Virus record (IMG/VR): IMGVR_UViG_3300042945_003044 | Origin: a virus | Length of the DNA stretch: 64,000 bases | Reading direction: 5' to 3' (one strand) | The notes under the pieces: generated by a model | The model's input: the letters and a program-made list of their open reading frames with translations, nothing else | Told to the model about the DNA's origin: nothing | The model's database searches: none | Program-made: the position numbers and the translations under genes | Shown: in pieces, positions 2 to 31,013 of the stretch | Position numbering within the stretch: position 1 is the stretch's first letter | How the letters are laid out: every line of letters begins with the position of its first letter

Positions 2-631
2 GCCCTATTAGAAACAAATAGTGAAATTAATAAGTCTATATTATCTGGCATAGCAGATCATATGAGAGAGACTATGGTTAAGTCTCAACCATCTATATTG
101 GAAGATATTCGCGGTTTGATAAGAGATGCTTTGAAACAAGAACCAGAATACTCATCCTTAACAAGCGGTAAGCTACGAGCAGAGTTAGGTATTCCAAATC
201 CGTCGATAGTGGATTCTATTGTCAACAAAATAGCAGACACAGTTACTATATCTATGAATCCTGTTAGGGCTACAAATAGAGGCGTTTTAGGCGGATTCAC
301 ATTAACTGCCATATCTTCTCTAGATATCGGGGGTTTGATAGGAGATCCCGACGCTTTTGTTCAGGATAGCTTAAATGGTTATTCTTTACCTTGGCTAGAA
401 TGGCTCATGCTAAGAGGTACTTCTGAGATAGTTAAAAATTATACCGTTGATATGACATCGAATCCTAATTCCAGAAGCGGTATGGCACTGATGGTTACAG
501 ATACTAATTCGTGGAGAGTCCCTTCTGAATTTGCGGGAGTCGCAGAGAATAATTGGTCTACTAGAGCAATAGAGCGCATTGAAAAAAATATACCCACCAC
601 TATTCAAACACATATTGAAAAGAATTTATGA
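2..631 (+). CDS. Putative neck/head-tail joining protein, 5'-truncated by the window edge
   Basis: Frame is open from position 2 to the ATG at 62, so the gene probably starts before the window. Lies two genes upstream of the tail tube gene; its stop overlaps the next ATG (ATGA 628-631). Function from synteny only. Confidence 0.5.
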   Translation, partial: ALLETNSEINKSILSGIADHMRETMVKSQPSILEDIRGLIRDALKQEPEYSSLTSGKLRAELGIPNPSIVDSIVNKIADTVTISMNPVRATNRGVLGGFTLTAISSLDIGGLIGDPDAFVQDSLNGYSLPWLEWLMLRGTSEIVKNYTVDMTSNPNSRSGMALMVTDTNSWRVPSEFAGVAENNWSTRAIERIEKNIPTTIQTHIEKNL

Positions 632-16280: not shown

Positions 16281-18631
16281 TAAATTCATATATTAAAATT
16301 CCAGATAATGTTGGCGCATCTTTCGAAATAGTCAATGGAAGATTTATTTTACAGGCACCAGAGCCGACGTTTGTTGGTCTCGACGCTTCTTTAATAGGTC
16401 ATTTTATACCATATTTTGCCAAAAATCTTTTATCCACTGGTGCAACAGAATGGGAAGCCGGTATAGGCAAAGTAATATCTACCACTATAGTGGAAAGAGA
16501 AGAGGTTTCTGGTTCGTCTAACAATGATGAGTTAGTATTTTTTAGTTTCGGTGGGACAAAAACGTTTTTCGTATATCCTAATCAGTATTCTGTGGATCTT
16601 GGGTATAATAATTTAATTACCAGTACGGGCGTGTTCAATATTGGAGACGTAAGGTCTACATACGTTGTAGATCTATCTACCAATCATGCTTCTGGTACTC
16701 TGCCCGTAGCATCCGGTAATCGCGGTCTTATACTAGATTTTAAAGCATATAATAGAAATAATAAGGATTTACATATTATTGCTTCTAGTGGAGATTTAAT
16801 AGATGGTTCAGCTTCTTTAACTATAGATTATGATAATGCCTACACCTCTTTGGTATCGAATGGTTCTGGCTGGATAGAACTAAAAAATGAGGTTAATCTA
16901 AATATAGATCCGGATTTGATGGGTACTCCACAAGGACCAAATGGCTCTATTCAATACAAAGTTAATTCTACCTCTTTTGGTGGCTCAAATATATATTATA
17001 GCAACGCTTCTAATAGCCTGCTATTTGGCGGTACGGGATCGGAACAATCCGCCGATACAGTCATATCAGGATCTGGTACAACCATTTTTAATAAAACATC
17101 CAAGAATACAGACTTTATTATTAATGGTAGTGGTAATAGAAATTGTATTTTTGATGCTTCTGGAAAGATAGGTTTAAATTTGCCGTCGGGAGCAAAGCCC
17201 GCCACATTACTACACATCGTTGGACAGGGATGCGATAGTAACATAAGATTGGAGAATAGGAGTTCCTGCTCCACTCCTAAACTTGTACTTTATCATAAGC
17301 CCTCTACCACTCTTGATAGTGGGTCATTAGTTGGTAGCATACATCTAGCAGGCAAAAATTCTGTTGGATCAGAGATAGACTATTCTCAAATTCGCACAAG
17401 AGCCATTTCTTCTCAAGCCTCTAGTCCTAGTGGAGAACTTGTTGTATCAATAAATAATGGCGGTTCCTCATTAGATAGCTTAACCGTTAATTCAGATTCG
17501 GTTGCTATTAGAAATAAAAACAGACAATTACAAATATCTACAAGCGGTGTGATTGCTGATAAAATAGTCGTTTCGGATTCTTTACATTTATTGCCATTGT
17601 CTATTAGTGGTAGTATACTGAGCGTAGGACAATCTGGTATTTTAGAGAGCGCAGGATATACCAAGTCGGATCTAGCTTCGATTGGAACTAAAGCGTCCTT
17701 ATCTGGCGCTATTTTTAGCGGTAATATTACTGCTCCCAGGATTAATGCTCCAGCACTTTCTCAGTCGTCTGGATCTTACATAGATTTTTCTAGCTCTACT
17801 CTTATTGGTAATTGGAATATAGGAGCAGACACGATATTAGCAAAGGATACAAATAACACATCCGATCAAGGCTCTGTTTTAACGCATACTGGATCTGGAA
17901 TAGCATGGTCAAAACCAAGCGCAGATAATTTTATATGGTCGGGCTTAGATATATCTTGGGAAAAATATCCTATAAGATCTTGCTTTATACAAAACGGGGG
18001 AGACGTTTTAGCTATTAGTGCTATCGGTTTAAGCAATGAGTTTAGTGTTGGAGATACGGTAAAAATTAGTGTTAATACCAATAATTATTTTAGAACAATT
18101 AATAGCATTACAGAAAGTAATGGCTATACAAATATCGTATTGAATCAGATTCTACCGATCTCTGGAACGGGTAATATTTTCTCCATAAATAAAGGAGGAT
18201 ATTTAAATCTTAGTGTAGAAAATTCCGGAGCACCAGCTATTTCGCCTCAGACAACAATTAGTTGCAGACCTCTTACCAATACTATTTTTAATCAAAATAA
18301 GCATTCTATAGACTTTCAGATTAATGGCGAATCAGTTGCTCCAGCAATTTATGTAAATGCTAAGCCGTCCAATAGATTAGAGGCCGTCTCCGCCACTGTT
18401 ATTAATGGATCGTCACCTAAGATTGTTCAACAGTCCGGTAATTTAAATAGATATGCATCTTTAAGCGTTAGTGGCTATATTTATACAGACAGTATTAGTA
18501 TAGGTCAAACACCAGTGCCTTCTGGATATATTTTAACTTCTACATCTGGTAATATTGCGCAATGGCAGTCTACAAATACTATTAGTGATCTAGACGGCGG
18601 CGTAATTGTATTTAGCGGAGTAAGTCTATGA
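16277..18631 (+). CDS. Tail fibre/structural protein (784 aa)
   Basis: N-terminal 'EWEAGIG...SSNNDELVFFSFGGTKTFFV' fibre-type motif; 'TLPVASGNRG...LIDGSASLTI...LVSNGSGW' fibre module; 'GPNGSIQY...FGG' and 'GKIGLN..P.TLLHI' fibre repeats. Confidence 0.7.
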   Translation: MINSYIKIPDNVGASFEIVNGRFILQAPEPTFVGLDASLIGHFIPYFAKNLLSTGATEWEAGIGKVISTTIVEREEVSGSSNNDELVFFSFGGTKTFFVYPNQYSVDLGYNNLITSTGVFNIGDVRSTYVVDLSTNHASGTLPVASGNRGLILDFKAYNRNNKDLHIIASSGDLIDGSASLTIDYDNAYTSLVSNGSGWIELKNEVNLNIDPDLMGTPQGPNGSIQYKVNSTSFGGSNIYYSNASNSLLFGGTGSEQSADTVISGSGTTIFNKTSKNTDFIINGSGNRNCIFDASGKIGLNLPSGAKPATLLHIVGQGCDSNIRLENRSSCSTPKLVLYHKPSTTLDSGSLVGSIHLAGKNSVGSEIDYSQIRTRAISSQASSPSGELVVSINNGGSSLDSLTVNSDSVAIRNKNRQLQISTSGVIADKIVVSDSLHLLPLSISGSILSVGQSGILESAGYTKSDLASIGTKASLSGAIFSGNITAPRINAPALSQSSGSYIDFSSSTLIGNWNIGADTILAKDTNNTSDQGSVLTHTGSGIAWSKPSADNFIWSGLDISWEKYPIRSCFIQNGGDVLAISAIGLSNEFSVGDTVKISVNTNNYFRTINSITESNGYTNIVLNQILPISGTGNIFSINKGGYLNLSVENSGAPAISPQTTISCRPLTNTIFNQNKHSIDFQINGESVAPAIYVNAKPSNRLEAVSATVINGSSPKIVQQSGNLNRYASLSVSGYIYTDSISIGQTPVPSGYILTSTSGNIAQWQSTNTISDLDGGVIVFSGVSL

Positions 18632-19146
18632 GCTTTAAATTTAAAAGAGATATTTCTACAACCCTGGCCCCAGCCTTAGATCAGGTTGACGTGGGAGAAC
18701 TAGTACTAAATGTGCAGACCGGTACTCTCTATACAAAGAAAAGAGATTCAGAAGGCAATGAAAGTATAGTCAAGTTTATTTCTGTACCACTATCTTCTTC
18801 TGGAGATGGGTCTTGTAGCAATATGCTACCGGTTATATCTTTTGCTGATGTCACTAATTTTTGCTGCAATGGTTCGGTATTAGTGGCTACTATTAATAAC
18901 CTCATGGCTAGCTCAATATACAAATATAGTGTACAAGATTTAACCAGTAATTCTACTGTCATATTTTCTCAGAGTTCTGGGGACATCACTCCGCTTGGTA
19001 GATCCACTAGACAAGTTCCTATTTCTATTAACATCAACACTAATCAGCCTAATGCTTTAATAAAGTTTAGTGTTTTAGACAATAACAACAATTTACAAAG
19101 CGAAGCTATAGTGGCCATTTGTTGCAAGAACTGTGCCGCAACATAA
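18628..19146 (+). CDS. Fibre-associated protein: Mtd_N/hyaluronidase-like N-terminal motif plus one Cys-bracketed domain
   Basis: 'FKFKR...P..DQVDVGELVLNVQTGTLYTK' is a familiar N-terminal motif of phage fibre proteins. The C-terminal domain runs from 'FCC' to 'ICCKNC'. Confidence 0.6.
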   Translation: MSFKFKRDISTTLAPALDQVDVGELVLNVQTGTLYTKKRDSEGNESIVKFISVPLSSSGDGSCSNMLPVISFADVTNFCCNGSVLVATINNLMASSIYKYSVQDLTSNSTVIFSQSSGDITPLGRSTRQVPISININTNQPNALIKFSVLDNNNNLQSEAIVAICCKNCAAT

Positions 19147-19155
19147 GGATAAAAC

Positions 19156-20379
19156 ATGATTCAAAAAAGACAGATTTCGCAAAACCTATGTTCTAGTGGC
19201 GTAGCTATCACCTTTAGTGGAATACCAGTAGATATAAGTAATGATTATAGATTAAGCTTTTGGAAAGATAGTTGCATCCCTCAGCAGTCAGATATTATTA
19301 TTAATCCAACAGGATATCAAATTAGACCAGCTTCTAACACAATAGACGCTGTGGTATATGTATCCTCTAATACTGCTTATACCGTAGATAATTCTTCTTC
19401 ATCCGTTATAGGGTTGAGCGTTGTAGATATTGCTTCTAGTGGCGAAGTATATAGAGATTACATACATATTTCATGTGGTAATTTATGCAGCGATGCGGGT
19501 AAGCCGTTGGACACCGCTGTTCCAACCCGTACTCCCACCCCTACCCCAACCAACACTACCACACCAACCCCAACAACCACGATCACCCCAACAGTCACCA
19601 ACTCGCCGTCTGTGACGCCAACAGTGACGCCGACAATATCGATAACACCATCCAAAACACCAACTAGGACGCCTACTCCTACCAGAACAAATACTCCTAC
19701 TGTGTCTATAACTCCTTCATTTACCCCATCGAGCACAGTAACTCCAACCAATACTCCGACAAATACTCCTACTGCTTCGGTTACAGTTACTCCTTCGATT
19801 ACCCCATCTAACACCACCACTCACACCCCTCCACCTACGCCTGGTCTTACAAGTACTCCAACCCCAACAGTTACTCCAACTATATCCTTAACTCCCACCC
19901 AAACTATCACCCCTAGTATTACTGCTACTAATACCGTTACGCCCACCCAGACGCCTACGTCATCGGTCACCCCTACTATTTCACAAACACCAGAACCAAC
20001 ACCAACGACCACCCCTACGCCAACACTCACTCCGACAATGACTCCTTTATATACTAGGCCTAGTTTTGCGGTTACTTTTGATCAAATTAATTTTTCAGGT
20101 AAGTGCGATACCGGTATATTAATATCCGCTAATGTCTCTGGTGTACCAAATACCGTTTATAACTATAGCTTTAATGTAGAATCTATTGGTAATAATAACA
20201 ATATTAATAATATTTTTATTGAGCCAAGAACCGGCCAATTTGCAATGTCCAATAACAATAATAAAATTTTTACTTACGTTTATACACTAGAAAAAATAGG
20301 CTCTTTTGTAGTTAGTTGTAGTGTTTCAGATAGCACAAGCACAGCACAAAGTTTGACAACAATTGCTTGTCAAAGTTAA
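19156..20379 (+). CDS. Mucin-like Pro/Thr stalk protein with two Cys-bracketed domains
   Basis: 407 aa; about 175-aa Thr/Pro/Ser tract between two globular domains. Confidence 0.75.
19519..20046 (+). repeat. Degenerate Pro-Thr(-Ser) coding repeat
   Basis: [17 protein letters not shown]...TPTMTP. Codons are synonymously varied, so the repeat is at protein level rather than a DNA microsatellite. Confidence 0.9.
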
Positions 20380-20397
20380 TTCAAAAAGAAACTATAT

Positions 20398-20407
20398 TGT
20401 GTATAAT
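20398..20407 (+). promoter_or_regulatory. Candidate late promoter TGTGTATAAT
   Basis: Intergenic, about 60 nt upstream of ATG 20468. Confidence 0.45.
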
Positions 20408-20467
20408 AGTTTAGAATCTTTTATTTTGAAGGAGATTTTGGTATATTTATAATGATTTTAGGAATAT

Positions 20468-21283
20468 ATGGCTAATTTATTTATTAAATTCCCCAGCACA
20501 CAACAAGAGCCCCCGATGCCAGAAACAGTAAATACCTCACCTTCGCTGTCTGTTAAGTTTGATTTTTCTCATTATGGTATAGAGGGAAATTCTAAAACTA
20601 TTACTTTGCCAAATGCCCAATGTCTTAAGGGCTCCTTTATCGTTGTAGCGGAGGCTTCTAACTTAATACCGGGTAGACAATATACTATATTATTTGAATT
20701 ATTGAACCCGTCATCTACTCGACAGGTGTTTGACCCGGCAGCTATAACGATCTTTGCTTCGACACCAACGCAAAAATTTACCACGGTAGCTAACGTAGAT
20801 CCACAGTATAATTATATTTTAAAAGCAACCATTAATCAGACAGATACTGGTATAGCTGCCTCTGATATGGTAGCCGCTAGCTGTGCTTCTATTCCAGCGG
20901 TACCTACACCAACCCCAACCGCTAGGCCTGTCACTGCATCTATGCCTCGTGTAAACTTTGATGCTGGTCCGGTCATGATGGTAAATCCTCCCAATAGGTG
21001 CAGAGAACAACTCAACATTATTTGCACCATATCAAATGCCCGTATCGGAACTACATATAAATACGACTTTGTTTGTCTTACTAGCGATGCGGCGCCACTA
21101 TTGTCACCGGCTACCGGCTTTGTGACCGCAGGCTTCTCCGAACAAAACATAAATACCGTAGTGACCGTTAATCCATCCAAAGGCAATATGGTTAGTTTAC
21201 AGGTTAGAGTATTTGATGCTAAATATCCTGATATAATACTAGATGAAGATATATTACTAATTCAATGCTATGGGTGCGAATAA
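20468..21283 (+). CDS. Protein with two Cys-bracketed domains and a short PT linker
   Basis: 'SNLIPGRQYTILF' and 'SNARIGTTYKYDF' copies of the family motif; ends 'QCYGCE'. Confidence 0.75.
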   Translation: MANLFIKFPSTQQEPPMPETVNTSPSLSVKFDFSHYGIEGNSKTITLPNAQCLKGSFIVVAEASNLIPGRQYTILFELLNPSSTRQVFDPAAITIFASTPTQKFTTVANVDPQYNYILKATINQTDTGIAASDMVAASCASIPAVPTPTPTARPVTASMPRVNFDAGPVMMVNPPNRCREQLNIICTISNARIGTTYKYDFVCLTSDAAPLLSPATGFVTAGFSEQNINTVVTVNPSKGNMVSLQVRVFDAKYPDIILDEDILLIQCYGCE

Positions 21284-22848
21284 TGAGTAATTTAATTGTA
21301 AAATTTGCAGAAAAAAATATTTTAGTGAATAACGAAGGATGTTGTTCTACCGGAGTATCTAGCATAGTTACCGTATCGGGTATGATACCCGGACATAAAT
21401 ATTATTGCGAACTATCTTCTATATCTAGAGGCTCTATTGTTTTTGCTCAAAACAATTTCTATGTTATGACACAGTCTCTAAATCAGCCTATGAATATACC
21501 AATAGGATTTTCTTTAGAGGGGTCTAGATCTTATATTATTAAATTCAAAATTACGGACCTTGATTATAGAAAAGACGCAAAGTATTGGCTGCCTAATCGC
21601 AATGAATGGTATAAGAGCGCTTATTATAATGCAGATACAGAAGAATATTCTCAATACGCAACTATGAGCAATAATAATCCTGTTGCAGTAACCAGTAATA
21701 CTTCTGGCGACGGTTCTGCTGGGGCATCGGGCAATTTTGCGAATTTTGGAAATACAGCCGATTGGAATGGTCAAGACGGCAATTTGACTACCGTTGGTAC
21801 CAATGGCGGGCCGAGTTATTATGGTACCTATGATCAAAATGGAAATATTAATGAATGGCTTGATGATATATCGACCTCTCTTAAACCATATACTGGTGGT
21901 TCTTGGAATAGTCCGATCTCTGAACTTGGACAAATAGTTGAAAACAAACCGGTTTTTGAGTCTAGTTCTTTAGGACTTCGTATTGCTGCCGAGGTTAATC
22001 AAACCCTTAGTATTGATACATCTACTTTTTCCATGGTATCAGGATCTTTTCTAGGCATGAACGATGCGGATGATAATGGGATAGGCTCTGTTCCGCATTC
22101 TTTTTATATGAAAAAGCATCCGGTAACTAATAATGAATATATGGTATTTTTAAATTCCGTCGCTGCGAAATCTGATAGATATGGCTTATACAATAGTAAA
22201 ATGACCACAGACCCTAGAGGCGGCATTACTAGATCATCGAATACTAATCAAACATTTAGCTATACTTGTAAGCCCAATATGGAAAATAAGCCAGTGAATT
22301 TTGTGAGCTGGTTAGATGGAGCAAGATATTGCAACTGGTTATATAATACCTCTATTGATCCCAATAGTGTTGAGACGGAGAAGGGGTCGTATGAAATGCC
22401 CGCTGATGCTACTAATGTGCCGTATGTGGGCTTCAATTATGGTGAAGATATTCTTACGGTAGAGTGCGGCAGACCATCTGCGCCAGACGTTGAATTTGTT
22501 ACGGATTCCAAAGAACTTATGAAGAGTTGTGGTCAGTATAAGAGTGTGGTTGCTTCGATTAAAAATGCTAAAATTGGTAGATCATATTCTTATCTATTTT
22601 CTACTCCTGATGATTATTTTGCTAATATATCGCCTAAAAGCGGAACGATAATAGCTGGTAATAATATTCAAAATATTAATACAGTATTTAGTTATAGTGG
22701 GTCTCTTAAGAAAATTAGCTTGAAGCTAGAGGTAACAGATTTATTAGATAATATAAAAACAGATACAATCTTGTTTTTTGATTGCGATACGTGTTTTCCG
22801 ACTCCTACGCCCACCCCGACCCCAACACCTACGCCAACTAATATATAA
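21283..22848 (+). CDS. Cys-bracketed domain protein carrying a circularly permuted FGE-sulfatase (SUMF1/C-type-lectin fold) domain; putative adhesin
   Basis: Start by TAATG overlap at 21283. FGE-family motifs 'WLPNRNEWYKSAY', 'YGTYDQNGNINEW', 'GGSW', 'LGLRIA', 'PVTNNEYMVFLN', 'KPVNFVSWLDGARYCNWL'; PT tail. Confidence 0.85.
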   Translation: MSNLIVKFAEKNILVNNEGCCSTGVSSIVTVSGMIPGHKYYCELSSISRGSIVFAQNNFYVMTQSLNQPMNIPIGFSLEGSRSYIIKFKITDLDYRKDAKYWLPNRNEWYKSAYYNADTEEYSQYATMSNNNPVAVTSNTSGDGSAGASGNFANFGNTADWNGQDGNLTTVGTNGGPSYYGTYDQNGNINEWLDDISTSLKPYTGGSWNSPISELGQIVENKPVFESSSLGLRIAAEVNQTLSIDTSTFSMVSGSFLGMNDADDNGIGSVPHSFYMKKHPVTNNEYMVFLNSVAAKSDRYGLYNSKMTTDPRGGITRSSNTNQTFSYTCKPNMENKPVNFVSWLDGARYCNWLYNTSIDPNSVETEKGSYEMPADATNVPYVGFNYGEDILTVECGRPSAPDVEFVTDSKELMKSCGQYKSVVASIKNAKIGRSYSYLFSTPDDYFANISPKSGTIIAGNNIQNINTVFSYSGSLKKISLKLEVTDLLDNIKTDTILFFDCDTCFPTPTPTPTPTPTPTNI

Positions 22849-22863
22849 GAAGAAGGTTTCGTA

Positions 22864-25800
22864 ATGAGTAGCGTTAAAATTAGTTTCGGTAATAAAATAG
22901 TACTTAAAGCTGATACTCCGAGCTGTTGCTCTGTAGGACTCTCTATACCTATTTTGCTTGAGAATCTAATTCCTTATGATACATACACAGTAGAATATAG
23001 CTCCATAGGTCCCGGCTCAGCCTCGTTCGCTAGTGCGTCAACCGAGATAATAGCCTCCGCATCATCAGAATCTATAGACAATATAGTATATTTAGAAGGT
23101 TCCGAAAGCTTTGTTATCAAAGCCCGCGTAACTATTAACGATAATGGTGTTATTAAGACCCTATCAGAAGATATATTGGGTATAGATTGTGGAGGACTAC
23201 CACCAGCTAAGCCTTCTCCAACTCCAACCTCAACCGTAACCAAGACTCCAACGCAAACACCCACTAAGACCCCAACAAATACTCCAACTGGTACACAGGT
23301 TCCTAATACACCCACACCAACCCCTACCACAAGTGTTACAGCATCAGTCACGCCAACAATTACTGTAACATCATCAAACACCCCTACTCCTACTCCTACA
23401 GCGTCTGTTACGCCCACTATTAGTGTTACTCCTTCTGTAACACCCAGTATAACCCCAACACTTACTCCATCGCCAACCAGAGGCTTGCCCAAAATCAGCA
23501 TTAGGCTCGGTAATGACTCTGAATCTTGCGGCTCGGATGATCTAGTTATATATACCACTATCAGTGGACTATTACCAAATACTACATATAAATATGCTTT
23601 AAATTTACCGGCTGGGCTAGAAGGGGTTCCTAATTTTGGCACTATCAATAGCTCTTCATCAGGATTCGCCACCTGTAAGAATTATTTGATCTATCAGAGT
23701 CAATTATCTAATAAAGTATGTGGCTTAACAAATTATCCTTTAATATATAGTGTTTATCTAACAGACAATACGCTGCTTAGAACATACGCTATTAATCTTA
23801 CATGCGATTCCACAGATTGTCATTGTCCTAATTTCACAATCTCTGGCACCATACCGGTGATAGACGGACCCTCTGTAACACCCACGCCCACCAGAGAAGC
23901 CCTATCTATTCCAGGGGTAGGAGACTTGGGTTCTTTACCTAGATTCCTGTGTCCATCTATAATTACTAAGAAAAAATTAAGCGGTAATAAATTCGTTGTG
24001 GATTTACTATCTACGAACAATTATGAGATTAATTTAACATATAGTTTTTATGGATCCCCAGAAAAGCTGTCTCTCTATGATCTTGATGGTACAGAATTAT
24101 ACAATAGTGGATATATTGGTACTGTAGATAAAGACGATAATAATGAGTATTTATTTTGTGCGGGTATAGATCGCAAAAATCATACCTATGGTACATATGA
24201 CACTATTAAAATACCTAATAGGGGATCGAGATATATTGTTTGTATCTTGGAGTCTGCGTGTGACGAAAGCACAGAATGGAAGATTTCGTTCTCTTGTGCT
24301 CCGGTACCAACACCTACTCCCACCTCTACAGTAAAACCATGTCCACCTTGTCCATCGTCAACCCCAGCACCTACCACTACGCCCACTAGCGACACTGGCT
24401 GTTCATATAGATTTAATAATTTTGTTGATTCTGATGCCAGAAAAGAGAAGAAGTTTGCTGTAGCCTGTAGCGATGTAACAGATACGGATCTTACTAGTCC
24501 AATTTCTATAGATAAGCCAATTGATGCAGCTATAGTTGCTAATACCTTATTATTAGCGGGATCGTCGATCTGTGTTGGTGTTCCGTATACCAATGTAGCA
24601 AGTAAAATATCTTTATCTAAGATTAAAAATAACGGTTTAGATATTTCGTTCGGAGTATCCGGGTCCACAACCCATTCCTTTAAAAACGATATCGGCGCTC
24701 AAGTTAGTGTGAACGCTAAGAAAATTCTACCTCAAGGCGGTAAGTTTCTGGTTGTTAGCTATACCAGTGGTAGCGCTGTGATATCAAGACATTTTGCTTC
24801 AACAGGTTCTATAGACACGACCTTTGGAAACAGAGGCTTTTTAGAGATATCTGCTATCGAAGACACAAAAATAGTAGGAATAGGGGACGCTTTAATAGTA
24901 AATAATAATATTATATTGTTCTTAGAAACTTATGATATAGTTAATAAAAAATATACATATAGCGCAGCTAGTATTTCTGGTGCTGGTCGAATCAATACTT
25001 CGTTTGGTACCGGAGGCATTGTGAACATAGACGCCGGATCGGTTTCTACTCAGTATCAGATTAAAAGGGCTGCTGTAATAGATCAAAAATTATTAGTTGT
25101 TGCACAAAATAAAAACGAAACAGGATCTTCGGTTGTTGTCGTGTCCCGCATAAATCTGAATGGTTCTGTTGATACTAGTTTCTATAATAATGGTACTCTT
25201 AAGATCCAACCCTCTGATCTGATTGTCGACCCCTTGATAAAAACAGAGCCGATGCTCAAAACATGTCTCATAAATAATGAAGGCATATACTTAGCAATAA
25301 CATATGCTGATAGTAATATGGTTGGAGTATGCAAATACAAATATCAAAATGGTAAAGACGGATCTTGGAAACTTGCGATACCACAGCCGTATAGCGGAGC
25401 AGTAACGGTTTTACCAGAATATGATGCGTCAATGTTTGTAGAAGATGGTCAATCATGGTATGTTGGTTATAATATAGCTTACAACGAATATACTATCTCA
25501 GACACGGAATTCAATAGCCCAATTCCGAGAAAGGGACCCGTTACACTTAGAACCGTTGCTGATACTATTAGTCGTAATCAAATACCTTATAGTTTAGATC
25601 CAGAACCAATGCAGAGAGAAGTCCTACAAGATATATCGGATGTCACAGCATCATACGCCCGTAAATCTTATAGATTCGTTATAGCCAAATACAATTTATC
25701 ATCTGGTAATACGACTCCTGTACTTTTGGGCGGTACAGAGACCGATCTATTCGGAAACCAGAGAAAGAATAGGCTTAGTGCTCAAAATATACAGTCTGAG

Positions 25801-26397
25801 ACCATTTCTGCGCTAGTAGTCTATAATAATAAGCTGTATATAGTTGGCTTTGGGGGTAACGACTATAACTATTCTTTCAGAGTCGCTAGAAGATCCAAAG
25901 ACACGTCTGGAGAATTTACTGTTGCTGATACTACATTCGGTAATAATGGTTATATAGAATCAGATTTTGATTATCTATGTAATTACGATATAGAAAACAT
26001 AGAACCTCCCATGTTTGAGGATAATCCCTGTGAAATATTCCCAACACCAACACCAACCCAGTCGTCTATCCCCGCTTCTGTAACCGTCTCATCCACCGAG
26101 TATGGCTGTTCAGGGGGTGCTCCGAGAATTACACTGAATTGGTTAACTAATAAGGCCTCTTCTGTCGCTCAAGAATATATAGCAAGAATTATTGTACAAG
26201 GAACCTCGCCAATCACCACAGTATCTGCTTCTGCTTTAACGATTCCGGCTCAGACATTATCTGGATCTATTAATATATCGTTAGCAAATGCCGCTAATTT
26301 TAATAATCAGATTTGTCAAATACAAATCTTAAAAACAGACTCTCTAGATATTTTATATAACAATGCTTTGGTCTTAAACATACCATCGTGTAATTAA
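22864..26397 (+). CDS. Large modular surface protein: Cys-bracketed domains, PT stalks, delta-60-like beta-propeller repeats
   Basis: 1177 aa; PT tracts at about 23206-23480, 23870, 24301 and 26041; repeats '[10 protein letters not shown]', '[11 protein letters not shown]', '[11 protein letters not shown]', '[11 protein letters not shown]', 'ADTTFGNNG'. Confidence 0.75.
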
Positions 26398-26410
26398 GGA
26401 ATGATTAATA

Positions 26411-28549
26411 ATGGCTACACTTCAATTTCAACAAGATATATGGAACTTTTGTGATCTAGAGAGCTGTTTGGAAACATATACTCTCCCTATTATATGCACA
26501 GAGCTGGCTACTAATCAATACTATACGCTAAGCTATGAGGTTGTTGCTGTACAATATTTTGATAATGTCATAGGAGAGATACGTTTTCCAGAAGACGATA
26601 ATAGATTCTTTAGCGCCTCGTCACAAAGTATTAGGCGCGAACCCTCCGTGCTTTTAATAGGTGTAAAAACAGCTATTATTAAAGCTTATCTAAAAAACGA
26701 TTCTGGACAAGCGTTAGCTCATAATACCACTTTGGTACGATGCACAAAATGTCATGACAAATATAGGTCAGATTTTAGTGTTAAATTAATATTAGACGAT
26801 ATCAATAAGTCGGGAGATAAGCTGCTACCAAACTGTGATCTCCCAATCAATCTTGTAGCGGTTGCAGAAAATTTAGTACCTGGCCGCAAATACAGATATT
26901 CTTTTAGTTCTGCGCCTAGTACTGGTGTTCATTTTTCAAACGCTTCGGGTGAACTATTCGCTAGTAGTGAAACTGAGCAAAATTTTAACACATTAGTATC
27001 CATAATTTCAGCCAATACGTCTCCTGTGTTTTATATTAGTTTTAATTTAACAGATTTATCCACCAACGTGTCTAAAAGAACGCCTCTATATGTATTTAGC
27101 TGTGGTAATACTTGTGGAGTTTTGCCAGAATCAATAGATATCAATTTAGATACAGAGACTGTAGATAATGCTTTATCAAGCTCTAGAGTATTTACTATAT
27201 CATTCAAAGATATACAAAATAGTAACGATATAGATCTTTCGGATGCGGCATTAACAATATCTAATGTCAGATACAACGGAGTATTGCAACAAAATCGTTT
27301 ATTGAATATTCAAAAAATCAACAAATCTTCTGTTGGTATTAATCTATTAGATAATTCACCTATCCTAAGTCATAATCATAATATTACTTTTTACCTAAAA
27401 GTTATTAAACCGGGCTTCATGCATACTGGACAAAATCTTGTATTAGCAGACAAATCCAATAGAACCATCGAAATAAACCTATTAAACAATAGCGGTATGC
27501 CCACATCTGTGTCACACGCAACAGTTACGACTACCACTAACAATATTGGAGAAATTACTAATTCAGTCGTACTAACTTGCGAGCCCACACAACTAAAACC
27601 GGAAACATGTGATATTATCGTACCAAGTGGAACTGTGTTGAGATCAAAAACTGGTACGGTTTTGAACGGAGATATAACTTTTAGAGCTATTCACTTCGGA
27701 GTATCTGATGAAAAGGCTTTAAAAATATTTCCTGGCGGATTCAATGTGTCTAATTATTTAGATAATAATTATAACTTGGTATCAGATAATGCGGTATTTT
27801 ATACTTATGCCCTTTTCTCTATAGAAGCCACGGATCAATTCGGTAATGTCGCTTATACTATGTCTAAGTCAGCTACCGTAACACTAGAGCTCAATAGTCA
27901 AATACAATCAAATACTATTCCGCTATGGTCTATGGACACAGATATTGGTATATGGACACAAGAAAATCCAGTAACTTATGATAATGGTTTAGTAGATATG
28001 CCTATTAACAGATTATCTGTGTGGAATTTAGGCATTAAATCAACAGATGTATGCACCACACTATCTTTACCATTTCCGTCCACAGTCTTAACTAATTATT
28101 TAGAAGAGATAGACGAGACTGGTCTATATATTAAGAAAACCCCTTTCTTAGCTGGAGATGGTAGTGGGGTTAATATAATAAAAAGTAATCCAGGACAAAG
28201 ATCTATAAATATCGTTCGATTTGCTAAAAAATATGGAAATCTAACTAATTCTAGCACATTCTCTTTTTATCTAACAAGAGAAAATGCAATCGCAAATACT
28301 AATAGCATAGGATCCATAAGTTATACAAATTATACTTCCGGTACTACCAAGTGCGAATGCGGAACCATGGATTGCACAGATAATACCGTAACTCCTACTC
28401 CAACACCGACAATAACAGTCACTAGTAGTATTACGCCCACGATAACCAGAACCTCTACCCCCACTCCTACTAGTACTAGTACATCTACCCCGACTCCAAC
28501 ACCAACAATGACACAAACACCACTGCCTCTTGGGGTGTCATCTAACTAA
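26411..28549 (+). CDS. Modular surface protein: two Cys-bracketed domains, a ZU5-like region and a PT tail
   Basis: 'ENLVPGRKYRYSF' family motif; 'FPGGF...IPLWSMDTDIGIWTQE...INRLSVWNL' resembles ZU5-like domains of bacterial surface proteins; C-terminal PT/ST tract. Confidence 0.65.
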   Translation: MATLQFQQDIWNFCDLESCLETYTLPIICTELATNQYYTLSYEVVAVQYFDNVIGEIRFPEDDNRFFSASSQSIRREPSVLLIGVKTAIIKAYLKNDSGQALAHNTTLVRCTKCHDKYRSDFSVKLILDDINKSGDKLLPNCDLPINLVAVAENLVPGRKYRYSFSSAPSTGVHFSNASGELFASSETEQNFNTLVSIISANTSPVFYISFNLTDLSTNVSKRTPLYVFSCGNTCGVLPESIDINLDTETVDNALSSSRVFTISFKDIQNSNDIDLSDAALTISNVRYNGVLQQNRLLNIQKINKSSVGINLLDNSPILSHNHNITFYLKVIKPGFMHTGQNLVLADKSNRTIEINLLNNSGMPTSVSHATVTTTTNNIGEITNSVVLTCEPTQLKPETCDIIVPSGTVLRSKTGTVLNGDITFRAIHFGVSDEKALKIFPGGFNVSNYLDNNYNLVSDNAVFYTYALFSIEATDQFGNVAYTMSKSATVTLELNSQIQSNTIPLWSMDTDIGIWTQENPVTYDNGLVDMPINRLSVWNLGIKSTDVCTTLSLPFPSTVLTNYLEEIDETGLYIKKTPFLAGDGSGVNIIKSNPGQRSINIVRFAKKYGNLTNSSTFSFYLTRENAIANTNSIGSISYTNYTSGTTKCECGTMDCTDNTVTPTPTPTITVTSSITPTITRTSTPTPTSTSTSTPTPTPTMTQTPLPLGVSSN

Positions 28550-28569
28550 GATAATATAGGAAATTTAAT

Positions 28570-29097
28570 ATGTCTCAAAAAAATTACATGTTACTTAAAG
28601 CTATTTTAACAGATGGTAACTATACATCTGAGGATTTAATGATGGTAGAGTGCCTAGAAAACCCTGCCACTCCTGGACCTACGCCTTCTGTGTCGAGATC
28701 TCCAACCCCGACCCCTACTCTTACTCCTAATATGACGCCTAACCCCACTCCAACAGTAACTCCCTCTATGCAAGTGGATCCAGAGATAGTGCTCAATCTT
28801 GCAAATAATTGGACATATAGATACAACAATCTACTAATTATTAGAGTTATCCCTGCTAATTCATCATCTAATATATCCGTATTGGTACCCGTTTTACCTT
28901 CTGCTTTACTTCCTCAGCCCGGCCAGCCTGCGCCAATACCATCTTCTGCTAGCCTCTTTGTTGGAGGAAATAAAGTTGGAGATTTATCTTTTATCGGGCC
29001 GTACTTTGGTAAAAGTATTAAATTAACACTAAATGGTTCACAATATATTGGCACAATAAATATAGGTCAAATTATTTTAACTAATACCGGTGTATAA
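28570..29097 (+). CDS. Small PT-linker protein with a C-terminal beta domain
   Basis: 175 aa; PT tract at about 28663-28766; AGGA RBS upstream. Confidence 0.7.
   Translation: MSQKNYMLLKAILTDGNYTSEDLMMVECLENPATPGPTPSVSRSPTPTPTLTPNMTPNPTPTVTPSMQVDPEIVLNLANNWTYRYNNLLIIRVIPANSSSNISVLVPVLPSALLPQPGQPAPIPSSASLFVGGNKVGDLSFIGPYFGKSIKLTLNGSQYIGTINIGQIILTNTGV
29089..29097 (+). promoter_or_regulatory. Candidate late promoter GGTGTATAA
   Basis: Overlaps the stop codon of the upstream gene; about 47 nt before ATG 29144 (RBS GAGG). Confidence 0.5.
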
Positions 29098-29143
29098 CTA
29101 AATATATCGCATAGATACAAAGAGTAATAATAAGAGGCAAAAC

Positions 29144-30235
29144 ATGTTGATTACTAATGAGTTTATAATAGAAAGATATTTAGGTAGTGAACCTTTGCCA
29201 CTATTATCAGCTCCCGCTGGATTAGAACCTAGTTTATTATTACAATATAATAATTTTATTAGCAACATATATACAATATATGGTAGTCAAGAAGAGAATG
29301 GTATAATTCCAGTTTTTTTTAAAAATATAGACGGATCTCCTGGTTCCAGTAGTAGTTTAACCGAGCTTAAAAGCGGACAAGAGTACTATTTTATTTCTAA
29401 AAATTCCGCATCTTTTCCATATGTTATTCCAGCTATCGGCGGCACCATTTCTAATCCTTTGCCACCAGAAAAATGTGCCACATTATCTCCATGCTGTCCA
29501 ACCGTTTCGTTCCCTAATAATTCTGTTTCTTTATCTGGTTCTGGAAATATCTATGCGGATATATCAGCTAATACAAGTGGGTTAATCCCCGGTAGACAAT
29601 ATTCATACTCTTATAGTTCATTAGCCTCCAATTGGCCCAGCACAATCACTCCGTTATCTGGAACATTTATTCCATCGACTTCTGGAGATTCTATAACTAA
29701 TATATTTAATTTTGCTCCAACTACTGGTAATTACTCTGGCTATTTTCCTTATAAGTTGGATATCTATCCAGATAAAGATTTTAGTCAAAAAAATATATAT
29801 TCTATATTAGAATTAAGGGTAACAGGTCCAGATAATCTGGGCTGTCCGGTTATGTCGGATACTATTATGGTAAAATGCAATCAATGCATACCTCCAAAAT
29901 GCGCAGTTAAAAAACCAAAACCAGTTTTTGTTGGAGGTCCCAAGCTGTCTGTTGGGGGCAACTGCTGTGCAGTAGGTGTGCCATTAGCGGTGAATATTTC
30001 CGGAGCAGAGCCTGGGAGATCCTATAATTTTGGTTTTGAGAGTTGGCCATCGGATATCAGTGTATCGCCAGCTAGTGGAATTTCTGGATTTGGAGACGGT
30101 AATGGTAAGATAGCGTGTTTAGTAGATATGGCGGGACAAACAAAAGCTATAGTAAAGTGCGTTATAGAAGATCCAGAATCGAATGAGCATCTTGTGGACT
30201 TTATTTCTATACAGTGCTCCTACAATTGTCCGTAA
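29144..30235 (+). CDS. Protein with two Cys-bracketed domains
   Basis: 'SGLIPGRQYSYSY..ITPLSGTF' and 'SGAEPGRSYNFGF..VSPASG'; CC and CxxC/CxxxC termini. Confidence 0.75.
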   Translation: MLITNEFIIERYLGSEPLPLLSAPAGLEPSLLLQYNNFISNIYTIYGSQEENGIIPVFFKNIDGSPGSSSSLTELKSGQEYYFISKNSASFPYVIPAIGGTISNPLPPEKCATLSPCCPTVSFPNNSVSLSGSGNIYADISANTSGLIPGRQYSYSYSSLASNWPSTITPLSGTFIPSTSGDSITNIFNFAPTTGNYSGYFPYKLDIYPDKDFSQKNIYSILELRVTGPDNLGCPVMSDTIMVKCNQCIPPKCAVKKPKPVFVGGPKLSVGGNCCAVGVPLAVNISGAEPGRSYNFGFESWPSDISVSPASGISGFGDGNGKIACLVDMAGQTKAIVKCVIEDPESNEHLVDFISIQCSYNCP

Positions 30236-30316
30236 TTATTCTGTATAATAAAAATCGCGCTCTTTAAGTTTAGCTATAAATAGCCGATTTACGCTTAAAA
30301 ATAAATATCTATAATA

Positions 30317-30325
30317 GGTGTATTA
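30317..30325 (+). promoter_or_regulatory. Candidate late promoter GGTGTATTA
   Basis: About 44 nt upstream of the likely ATG at 30369. Confidence 0.5.
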
Positions 30326-30368
30326 TCTTATTAGATACCTTACACGAATCCATAGGAACTTAGTTTTT

Positions 30369-31013
30369 ATGTCAACTACCGAACCTGGGTCAGAACTTAT
30401 TTCTCAACCCACTCCAACTCCAACAATTACTCCAACGGCTACTAATAAGCCGTGTATCAAGCCACCCAGAATATCATTTGATAATGGTAGTAAAACATCA
30501 TTGACTGGAACAGAATGCTGCTGCCCGGACAGCATCATATTGAAGTGCGAGCATCTTCATCCTGGGAAAAAATATACAGCTAAAATCGTTAGCATGGGTC
30601 CAGCAAAATCTAGAATATTTCCCAATTCCATATCCTTTGTAGCCTCACAAAGAACTCAGGAGTTAGAGTTTTTTAGTCAATTTGTATGCGATGATAATAA
30701 CATCAGACCTCTTAAAAATGCTGCATATATTTTACAAATTAATAATGCTAATAATTTAGATATGTCAAGACTCGATATCGGATTATTAGATGTTAAGTAT
30801 GGAAATACCACTATCGGCAGTAATAAATATAATTTATTTATAGATACAAATAGTCGTAAGATATTTGTGGAATTTGATAATGCTTTAATTCCGTCATCCA
30901 CAAACCCTATTACTTTTATGCTTTCTATAGATGGAGATGGTATTGTTGTATTGCCTAGAAATATTATTTTGGACACTGTTGGTATAGTACAAGAGTCTAT
31001 TGCTTTGTCTTAA
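30369..31013 (+). CDS. PT-linker protein with a partial Cys-bracketed domain and a domain paralogous to the middle of 26411-28549
   Basis: Likely start is ATG 30369 (AGGA upstream) rather than GTG 30318; 'ECCC...HLHPGKKY..FPNSISFVAS'. Confidence 0.7.
   Translation: MSTTEPGSELISQPTPTPTITPTATNKPCIKPPRISFDNGSKTSLTGTECCCPDSIILKCEHLHPGKKYTAKIVSMGPAKSRIFPNSISFVASQRTQELEFFSQFVCDDNNIRPLKNAAYILQINNANNLDMSRLDIGLLDVKYGNTTIGSNKYNLFIDTNSRKIFVEFDNALIPSSTNPITFMLSIDGDGIVVLPRNIILDTVGIVQESIALS

Follow-up and report, generated by a model that had tools for sequence, protein, structure and literature searches.

How does a phage gene come to encode a lectin-type domain whose two halves stand in swapped order and which sits in a loop of another domain, and what might such a protein do? 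This question is raised by a gene of an uncultured freshwater phage. The window analysed here comprises 64,000 nucleotides and represents the minus strand of an IMG/VR virus record of 121 kb, whose completeness is estimated at ~84%. The gene lies on the plus strand of the window at 21265..22848 and encodes 527 amino acids counted from the first ATG in the ORF list and its translation, the numbering used below. A second ATG at 21283 (M7) overlaps the stop codon of the upstream gene (20468-21283) as TAATG (sequence 21275-21285), a stop/start overlap that is typical of translational coupling. Because of this overlap, and because all eight orthologues described below start at the residue aligned with M7, the true start is, judging from the sequence, probably 21283 rather than 21265, which would give a protein of about 521 residues. 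The first-pass annotation had read positions 21565-22440, corresponding to residues 101-392, as a circularly permuted domain of the formylglycine-generating enzyme (FGE)-sulfatase/C-type-lectin type that splits a Cys-bracketed domain and lacks the catalytic Cys pair of FGE.

The protein matches PF03781 in two stretches with 47.7 bits (E 2.1e-12), well above the curated cut-off of 23.3, with a native chain that does not follow the collinear order of the profile. When the stretches were scanned separately, residues 109-215 matched profile positions 112-208, and residues 276-361 matched positions 34-110. The same swapped order was obtained in a six-frame genome search with PF03781. An HMM built from 66 normal-order single-domain homologues aligned residues 99-244 of the native protein to hmm 139-290 and residues 266-383 to hmm 22-134; the two matches do not overlap, and each part of the fold occurs exactly once. 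After rearrangement of the insert in silico (residues 246-392 followed by 100-245), a single match covering hmm 22-289 with 320 bits was found. Two swapped partial matches in the native order and one full-length match after rearrangement are the outcome that had been predicted, obtained here with the HMM of the 66 homologues. Moreover, a family profile searched against the sequences of solved structures revealed the same swap against TvpA (2Y3C; the best match, E 6.8e-11), pFGE and FGE. The family profile was needed for this comparison, as a single-sequence search of the same sequences gave a weak match to CarF (listed as CotH) alone. The swapped partial matches with PF03781, the 66-sequence HMM and the solved-structure profile bear out the proposed circular permutation, confirming at the level of sequence comparison that the insert is an FGE-sulfatase-type domain with its halves in swapped order.

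The permuted domain, delimited by the swapped HMM matches, the model and the structural matches, covers residues 101-387 (21565..22425, plus strand, as are all features below). The normally C-terminal half of the fold is placed first, at residues 105-245 (21577..21999). It contains the segment from GGSW to GLR (residues 211-243, 21895..21993), which aligns to the C-terminal end of TvpA, that is, to the region varied by diversity-generating retroelements (DGRs) in TvpA-type proteins. Between the two HMM matches, a variable linker of residues 246-265 (22000..22059) joins the ancestral C-terminus to the ancestral N-terminus. The normally N-terminal half follows at residues 266-383 (22060..22413) and is aligned by the family profile to human FGE 37-143.

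Structure prediction, which had been proposed as a check on the permutation, returned one compact domain. The AF2 model of residues 100-392 alone, based on a 54-sequence alignment, has a pLDDT of 92 and a pTM of 0.91. Its top Foldseek matches are all of the FGE fold, including TvpA, CarF, PorK, EgtB, FGE, pFGE, PvdO, ToxD and CalU17, with TM-scores of only ~0.3 over ~160 columns, and OvsA is also among its structural neighbours. In VIA, model residues 1-145 (protein 100-245) align in each case with the C-terminal half of the matched chain, as for TvpA (190-329), human FGE (219-371) and EgtB (287-433), with Z of 6.7-8.7. The best structural match is TvpA (Z 8.7, rmsd 2.1 over 119 residues), and human FGE and pFGE match with Z 6.7-6.9. 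A confident and compact model with half-length alignments is as expected of a circular permutant under a sequential aligner. The model shows the insert as a single compact FGE-type fold, of which each structural alignment covers about half.

The domain that hosts the insert is likewise visible in both alignment and model. The N-terminal part of this beta-sandwich module (module 1) comprises residues 7-100 (21283..21564), with the conserved Cys26, Cys27 and Cys48 and with strands predicted by the model across residues 11-98. Its last strand lies beyond the insert at residues 388-402 (22426..22470), carries the EDIL..EC motif with the invariant Cys401, and aligns with the final strand of the sister module; the model places this strand at 392-401, and its identity among orthologues is 0.74. 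Once the insert is removed, residues 7-100 and 388-404 can be aligned over the full length of the uninterrupted module at the N-terminus of gene 22864, including the closing EDIL..C motif, with a score of 150.5 versus 33 ± 6.4 for shuffles; module 1 is 33% identical to this sister module. Sister modules have a hairpin loop of 6-9 residues at the position where the protein of gene 21265-22848 has ~290 residues. In the whole-protein model (pLDDT 78), residues 8-98 and 392-402 form one beta-sandwich, and single sandwich domains of ~100 residues matched by VIA span model 4..402, with 91-107 residues aligned and Z of 8.7-9.6. The insert sits in the last hairpin of module 1, between strands 89-98 and 392-401. 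The contiguous paralogue in gene 22864 and the single sandwich across model 4..402 uphold the earlier claim that the host domain is split, and the match to the host domain suggests that the two chain ends of the insert lie close together. As Cys26, Cys27, Cys48 and Cys401 are invariant among orthologues, the term 'Cys-bracketed' is apt for this module.

A second sandwich, module 2, follows at residues 403-510 (22471..22794) and is paralogous to the C-terminal module of gene 20468. Its VIA matches are to macroglobulin/Ig-like domains with Z of 10-11, reaching 11.1 at model 404-510. The protein closes with a Pro/Thr tract and the stop codon (22795..22848), identified from the translation, and the tract is kept in orthologues. 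A Foldseek search with the model of all 527 residues yielded nothing but long multi-Ig proteins at TM ~0.15, which is uninformative, and beta-sandwich matches made up the whole VIA result for this model, so that it assesses the host modules alone. The host modules match many unrelated Ig-like/MG-like sandwich domains (Z 8.7-11.1) and no Pfam or PHROG family. On the model, they clearly belong to the beta-sandwich fold class, without assignment to one specific family. The Pro/Thr tract forms the very end of the protein (22795-22866 region), and the next gene begins 16 bases on with an opening module 33% identical to module 1. This arrangement could reflect the fission of a longer multi-module gene, or some read-through.

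Eight orthologues (P0002-P0009), which come from other samples and independent assemblies, share 50-58% identity with the protein in full-length alignments and have the same junctions. The connector residues that flank the insert on both sides are among the best conserved, and gene order is preserved on the P0003 contig, where the neighbours have 781, 170, 395, 283, 518, 1155, 738, 147 and 369 residues. These data bear on whether the gene could be an assembly chimera, or what is left of a degraded tandem array, in two pieces that have ceased to make up a domain. A remnant would fit the frequent occurrence of tandem arrays of the FGE-type domain in relatives, but junctions kept in eight orthologues from other samples, highly conserved connector residues, shared synteny in one orthologue, single occurrence of each profile segment and a confident, compact model all argue against both versions, and this explanation is already close to refuted.

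Conservation is uneven within the domain. Among the nine orthologues, the mean pairwise identity of residues 215-236 is 0.31 versus 0.65-0.73 for the core, and the segment from GGSW to GLR is the least conserved part of the domain. The linker of residues 246-265 has an identity of 0.27-0.39 and carries a 30-residue insertion in P0002. Since other loops and linkers (133-165, 244-275 and 362-387) are poorly conserved as well, residues 215-236 are not singled out as a binding site by variability itself. Orthologue P0007 has an insertion of ~130 residues (its residues ~147-300) in the variable loop aligned to residues 133-165 (window ~21661-21759). The same loop is the site of the chain break in a second permuted register described below (bNa), which indicates that an insertion as well as a cut can be accommodated there.

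The variable patch has the same position as the region diversified in TvpA-type proteins. There is no Cys between GGSW and GLR (residues 211-243), nor a Cys pair there in any of the nine orthologues. The FGE catalytic pair is absent on this basis, and the translation agrees with the first-pass annotation in this respect. The permuted domain might nevertheless keep an enzymatic role of the FGE/EgtB/PvdO superfamily and act on a component of the host envelope. In favour of such a role, many of the structural neighbours are enzymes (EgtB, OvsA, CalU17 and FGE), and the catalytic-residue check covered the FGE-specific Cys pair alone. However, in addition to the missing Cys, the best match in both sequence and structure is the non-enzymatic TvpA, and the region equivalent to the active site is the least conserved among orthologues, unlike a catalytic site. 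An enzymatic role is consequently considered quite improbable. For TvpA itself, FGE activity is lacking and a binding function is presumed (PMC5758913).

A different route to variability would be a DGR that targets the domain and has its reverse transcriptase and template in the ~16% of the genome that the record lacks. No class of DGR targets is larger than the FGE-type lectin domains, and in the TvpA class the diversified region is the C-terminal end of the domain (PMC5758913), which lends this possibility some appeal. Against it, no RVT_1 match at E <= 0.1 is present in the 121-kb record, and a blastn search of the gene against the whole record with a word size of 7 found no template repeat, as no part of the gene recurs at DNA level over more than 38 bases. 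In addition, the GGSW-GLR segment is not Asn-rich, and the equivalent of the variable region, residues 211-243 of 527, is internal to the chain. None of the hallmarks of TvpA-type DGR variable proteins, namely a nearby reverse transcriptase, a template repeat and a C-terminal variable region, was found in the record. Without a reverse transcriptase or a second DNA copy of the gene, variation in the present record does not appear to be retroelement-driven, and a DGR hidden in the missing part is very improbable.

The genome setting offers further clues to function. A tape measure gene (3,702 residues; phrog_28, E 5e-29) lies ~5 kb upstream of gene 21265-22848. Pfam and PHROG scans of 10 neighbour genes gave almost no matches, apart from a weak DUF5122 beta-propeller match in gene 22864 (E 0.005) and matches of genes 19156 and 26411 to phrog_15511, a family of unknown function. 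The genes across 18628-31013 have in common a Cys-bracketed module of ~100 residues and Pro/Thr tracts of up to ~175 residues. No match to the GenBank phage collection was found by tblastn with the protein or by blastn with 6 kb around the gene. It is gene order that points to the tail, an assignment that no PHROG or Pfam family supports.

The protein might instead be a decoration of the virion surface, which would stick to non-host material such as mucus, particles or biofilm matrix, or build a Pro/Thr-rich coat; in that case, the domain would not serve for receptor binding and would not determine the host range. This alternative is suggested by nine neighbour genes in which the same Cys-bracketed modules and long Pro/Thr tracts are combined with a variety of other domains, by the Ig-like sandwich modules, which are typical of accessory decoration proteins, and by the absence of a match to any baseplate or fibre family. 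However, the gene belongs to a block directly after the tape measure gene, and same-fold relatives adjoin Mtd_N tail-fibre genes, so a purely decorative function is regarded as unlikely. The preferred reading is a tail-associated adhesin composed of two Cys-bracketed sandwich modules, a Pro/Thr tail and a nested, permuted FGE-type lectin-fold domain as binding head, with a probability of roughly 0.75. The protein is most likely a non-enzymatic tail adhesin, and the position downstream of the tape measure gene, TvpA as the nearest solved relative and the variable patch at the position of the TvpA variable region together suggest a receptor-binding role.

To place the permutation in its family, 260 homologues from two database searches were classified by the query pieces a (residues 105-152), b (157-245) and N (262-385). 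Normal order (Nab) was found in 66 homologues, and tandem normal order (NabNab) in 41. The register of the present protein (abN) is represented by 27, and a second permuted register by 23 (bNa) and by a further 38 in which it forms an array or two separated units (bNabNa). The cut points are sharp, at ~138/142 of 295 for abN and ~193/198 of 295 for bNa, and copies of the bNa unit that are set apart by long spacers occur as well. Stand-alone abN proteins have 305-331 residues and are encoded on phage-like contigs, one of them a 110-kb contig with RNR, PhoH, RecA and DnaB. On another contig (L004, 5878-8996), a stand-alone abN protein directly follows a pair of Mtd_N-domain genes, and one gene of the pair has Laminin_G_3 in addition; the group resembles a tail-fibre cluster, and the phage contig is an unrelated one. 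A tandem relative is located on a 203-kb phage-like contig. Some relatives of the bNa register (P0244, P0246 and P0255) end in Cys-rich motifs followed by Pro/Thr linkers, and P0246 has a further Cys-rich module after the linker; the building style of the present gene cluster is thus also used with the bNa register. The literature searched, which took in few subscription journals, does not describe permuted forms of the FGE or C-type-lectin domain.

Among the loci sampled, chain order differs between phage and cellular copies. In bacterial and archaeal species genomes, each of the best 80 loci is collinear, and some are tandem arrays in which two or three full domains follow one another. By contrast, nearly all of the best 80 IMG/VR loci have a permuted order, with 56 single bNa units and at least 12 more bNa arrays; abN occurs in only three of these 80, and two proteins among them contain both permuted registers. 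The loci were ranked with a permuted query, which favours permuted matches in both collections, and the contrast between permuted phage and normal-order bacterial copies still stands. The two dual-register proteins (L086 and L092) have a 748-aa ORF with the registers in series, ab-N and then b-Na. According to record titles, 56 of the 80 bacterial and archaeal loci are from Planctomycetota and 10 from Verrucomicrobiota. The link to these phyla made in the first-pass annotation holds in this sense for the closest cellular homologues, and gives a weak hint to the phage host. A single origin, or a count of origins, for each register could not be read from trees, in which the registers are interleaved, mostly with weak support. 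In FastTree (116 rows) and quick IQ-TREE (64 rows) trees, with the pieces re-ordered to a common order, the starred branches force at least two changes each.

A possible route to the present architecture can be outlined. The tandem arrays in Planctomycetota and Verrucomicrobiota genomes and the two permuted registers in phage relatives suggest that a tandem array of normal-order domains may have given rise to the permuted form by loss of the outer pieces. The ancestral C-terminal part would then come first, a linker of ~20 residues would join the old termini, and the new termini at profile position ~140 would be plugged into the host loop. On this route, the ~140-cut register would subsequently have been nested in the hairpin of a tail beta-sandwich module, with the domain of ~290 residues serving as a putative non-enzymatic binding head. 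The variable patch from GGSW to GLR (residues 215-236) may be the ligand-contacting surface, by analogy with TvpA and Mtd, and would vary by ordinary mutation, not by a retroelement. More speculatively, moving the chain ends off the variable segment, which in normal-order proteins forms the C-terminus itself, could leave the binding face of the domain free even where the domain is part of a larger chain. A broader version of this history is tentative, and we hold it at slightly less than even odds. In this version, a normal-order, often tandem domain passed into phages from Planctomycetota/Verrucomicrobiota-like bacteria, and its register was changed there two or more times (at ~140 and ~195), giving a phage-specific clade with the ligand-facing variable segment off the chain end, and the ~140 register put the chain ends together at a distance from this segment, allowing the nesting in a hairpin. 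If true, the arrays, both registers, the dual-register protein and the nested copy would together document, with a completeness unusual in nature, a permutation that arose by duplication and was followed by insertion of the domain.

In phages and bacteria, massively variable binding proteins are built mainly on FGE-type C-type-lectin folds. To our knowledge, domain databases model this fold in one chain order only, so that members of the permuted clade, which dominates the phage matches, are labelled 'formylglycine-generating enzyme' with broken partial matches, or missed. The present locus adds the rarer abN register and a domain-in-domain architecture. It indicates that the fold can be cut at a second site and nested in another domain, a finding relevant to the construction and exchange of receptor-binding heads in phages. 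For protein engineering, it may provide a natural design for a lectin-type binding surface displayed from a loop. In addition, chain order, permuted in phages and normal in bacteria among the best 80 loci per collection, may be a simple marker to separate phage copies from cellular ones.

Among known systems, human SUMF1/FGE (1Y1E) and its paralogue pFGE (1Y4J) share the PF03781 family and fold with the present domain. Compared with FGE, the present domain is without the copper-binding catalytic Cys pair and has its chain order swapped, and it is part of a protein from a phage structural region, whereas FGE is a maturation enzyme. TvpA (Treponema denticola variable protein 1, 2Y3C) belongs to the same fold subclass, and in both proteins the GGSW-to-GFR segment is the variable part. 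However, TvpA is a stand-alone domain of normal chain order that is diversified by a retroelement in its C-terminal variable region, whereas the present domain is permuted, carries its variable segment internally, is nested in another domain and has no retroelement in its record. Mtd (major tropism determinant) of Bordetella phage BPP-1 is a phage tail protein that likewise uses a C-type-lectin-type fold as binding head, and an abN-register relative of the present domain adjoins Mtd_N-domain genes. No sequence similarity between Mtd and the present domain was detected, and Mtd differs in its fold subclass, normal order, C-terminal variable region and dependence on a retroelement. The bNa-register FGE-type domains of other uncultured phages belong to the same clade as the present domain (39-47% identity) and are likewise phage-borne, in tail-type proteins. 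The sampled domains of that register are cut at ~195 and lie linearly in the chain, whereas the present domain is cut at ~140 and lies inside a beta-sandwich hairpin.
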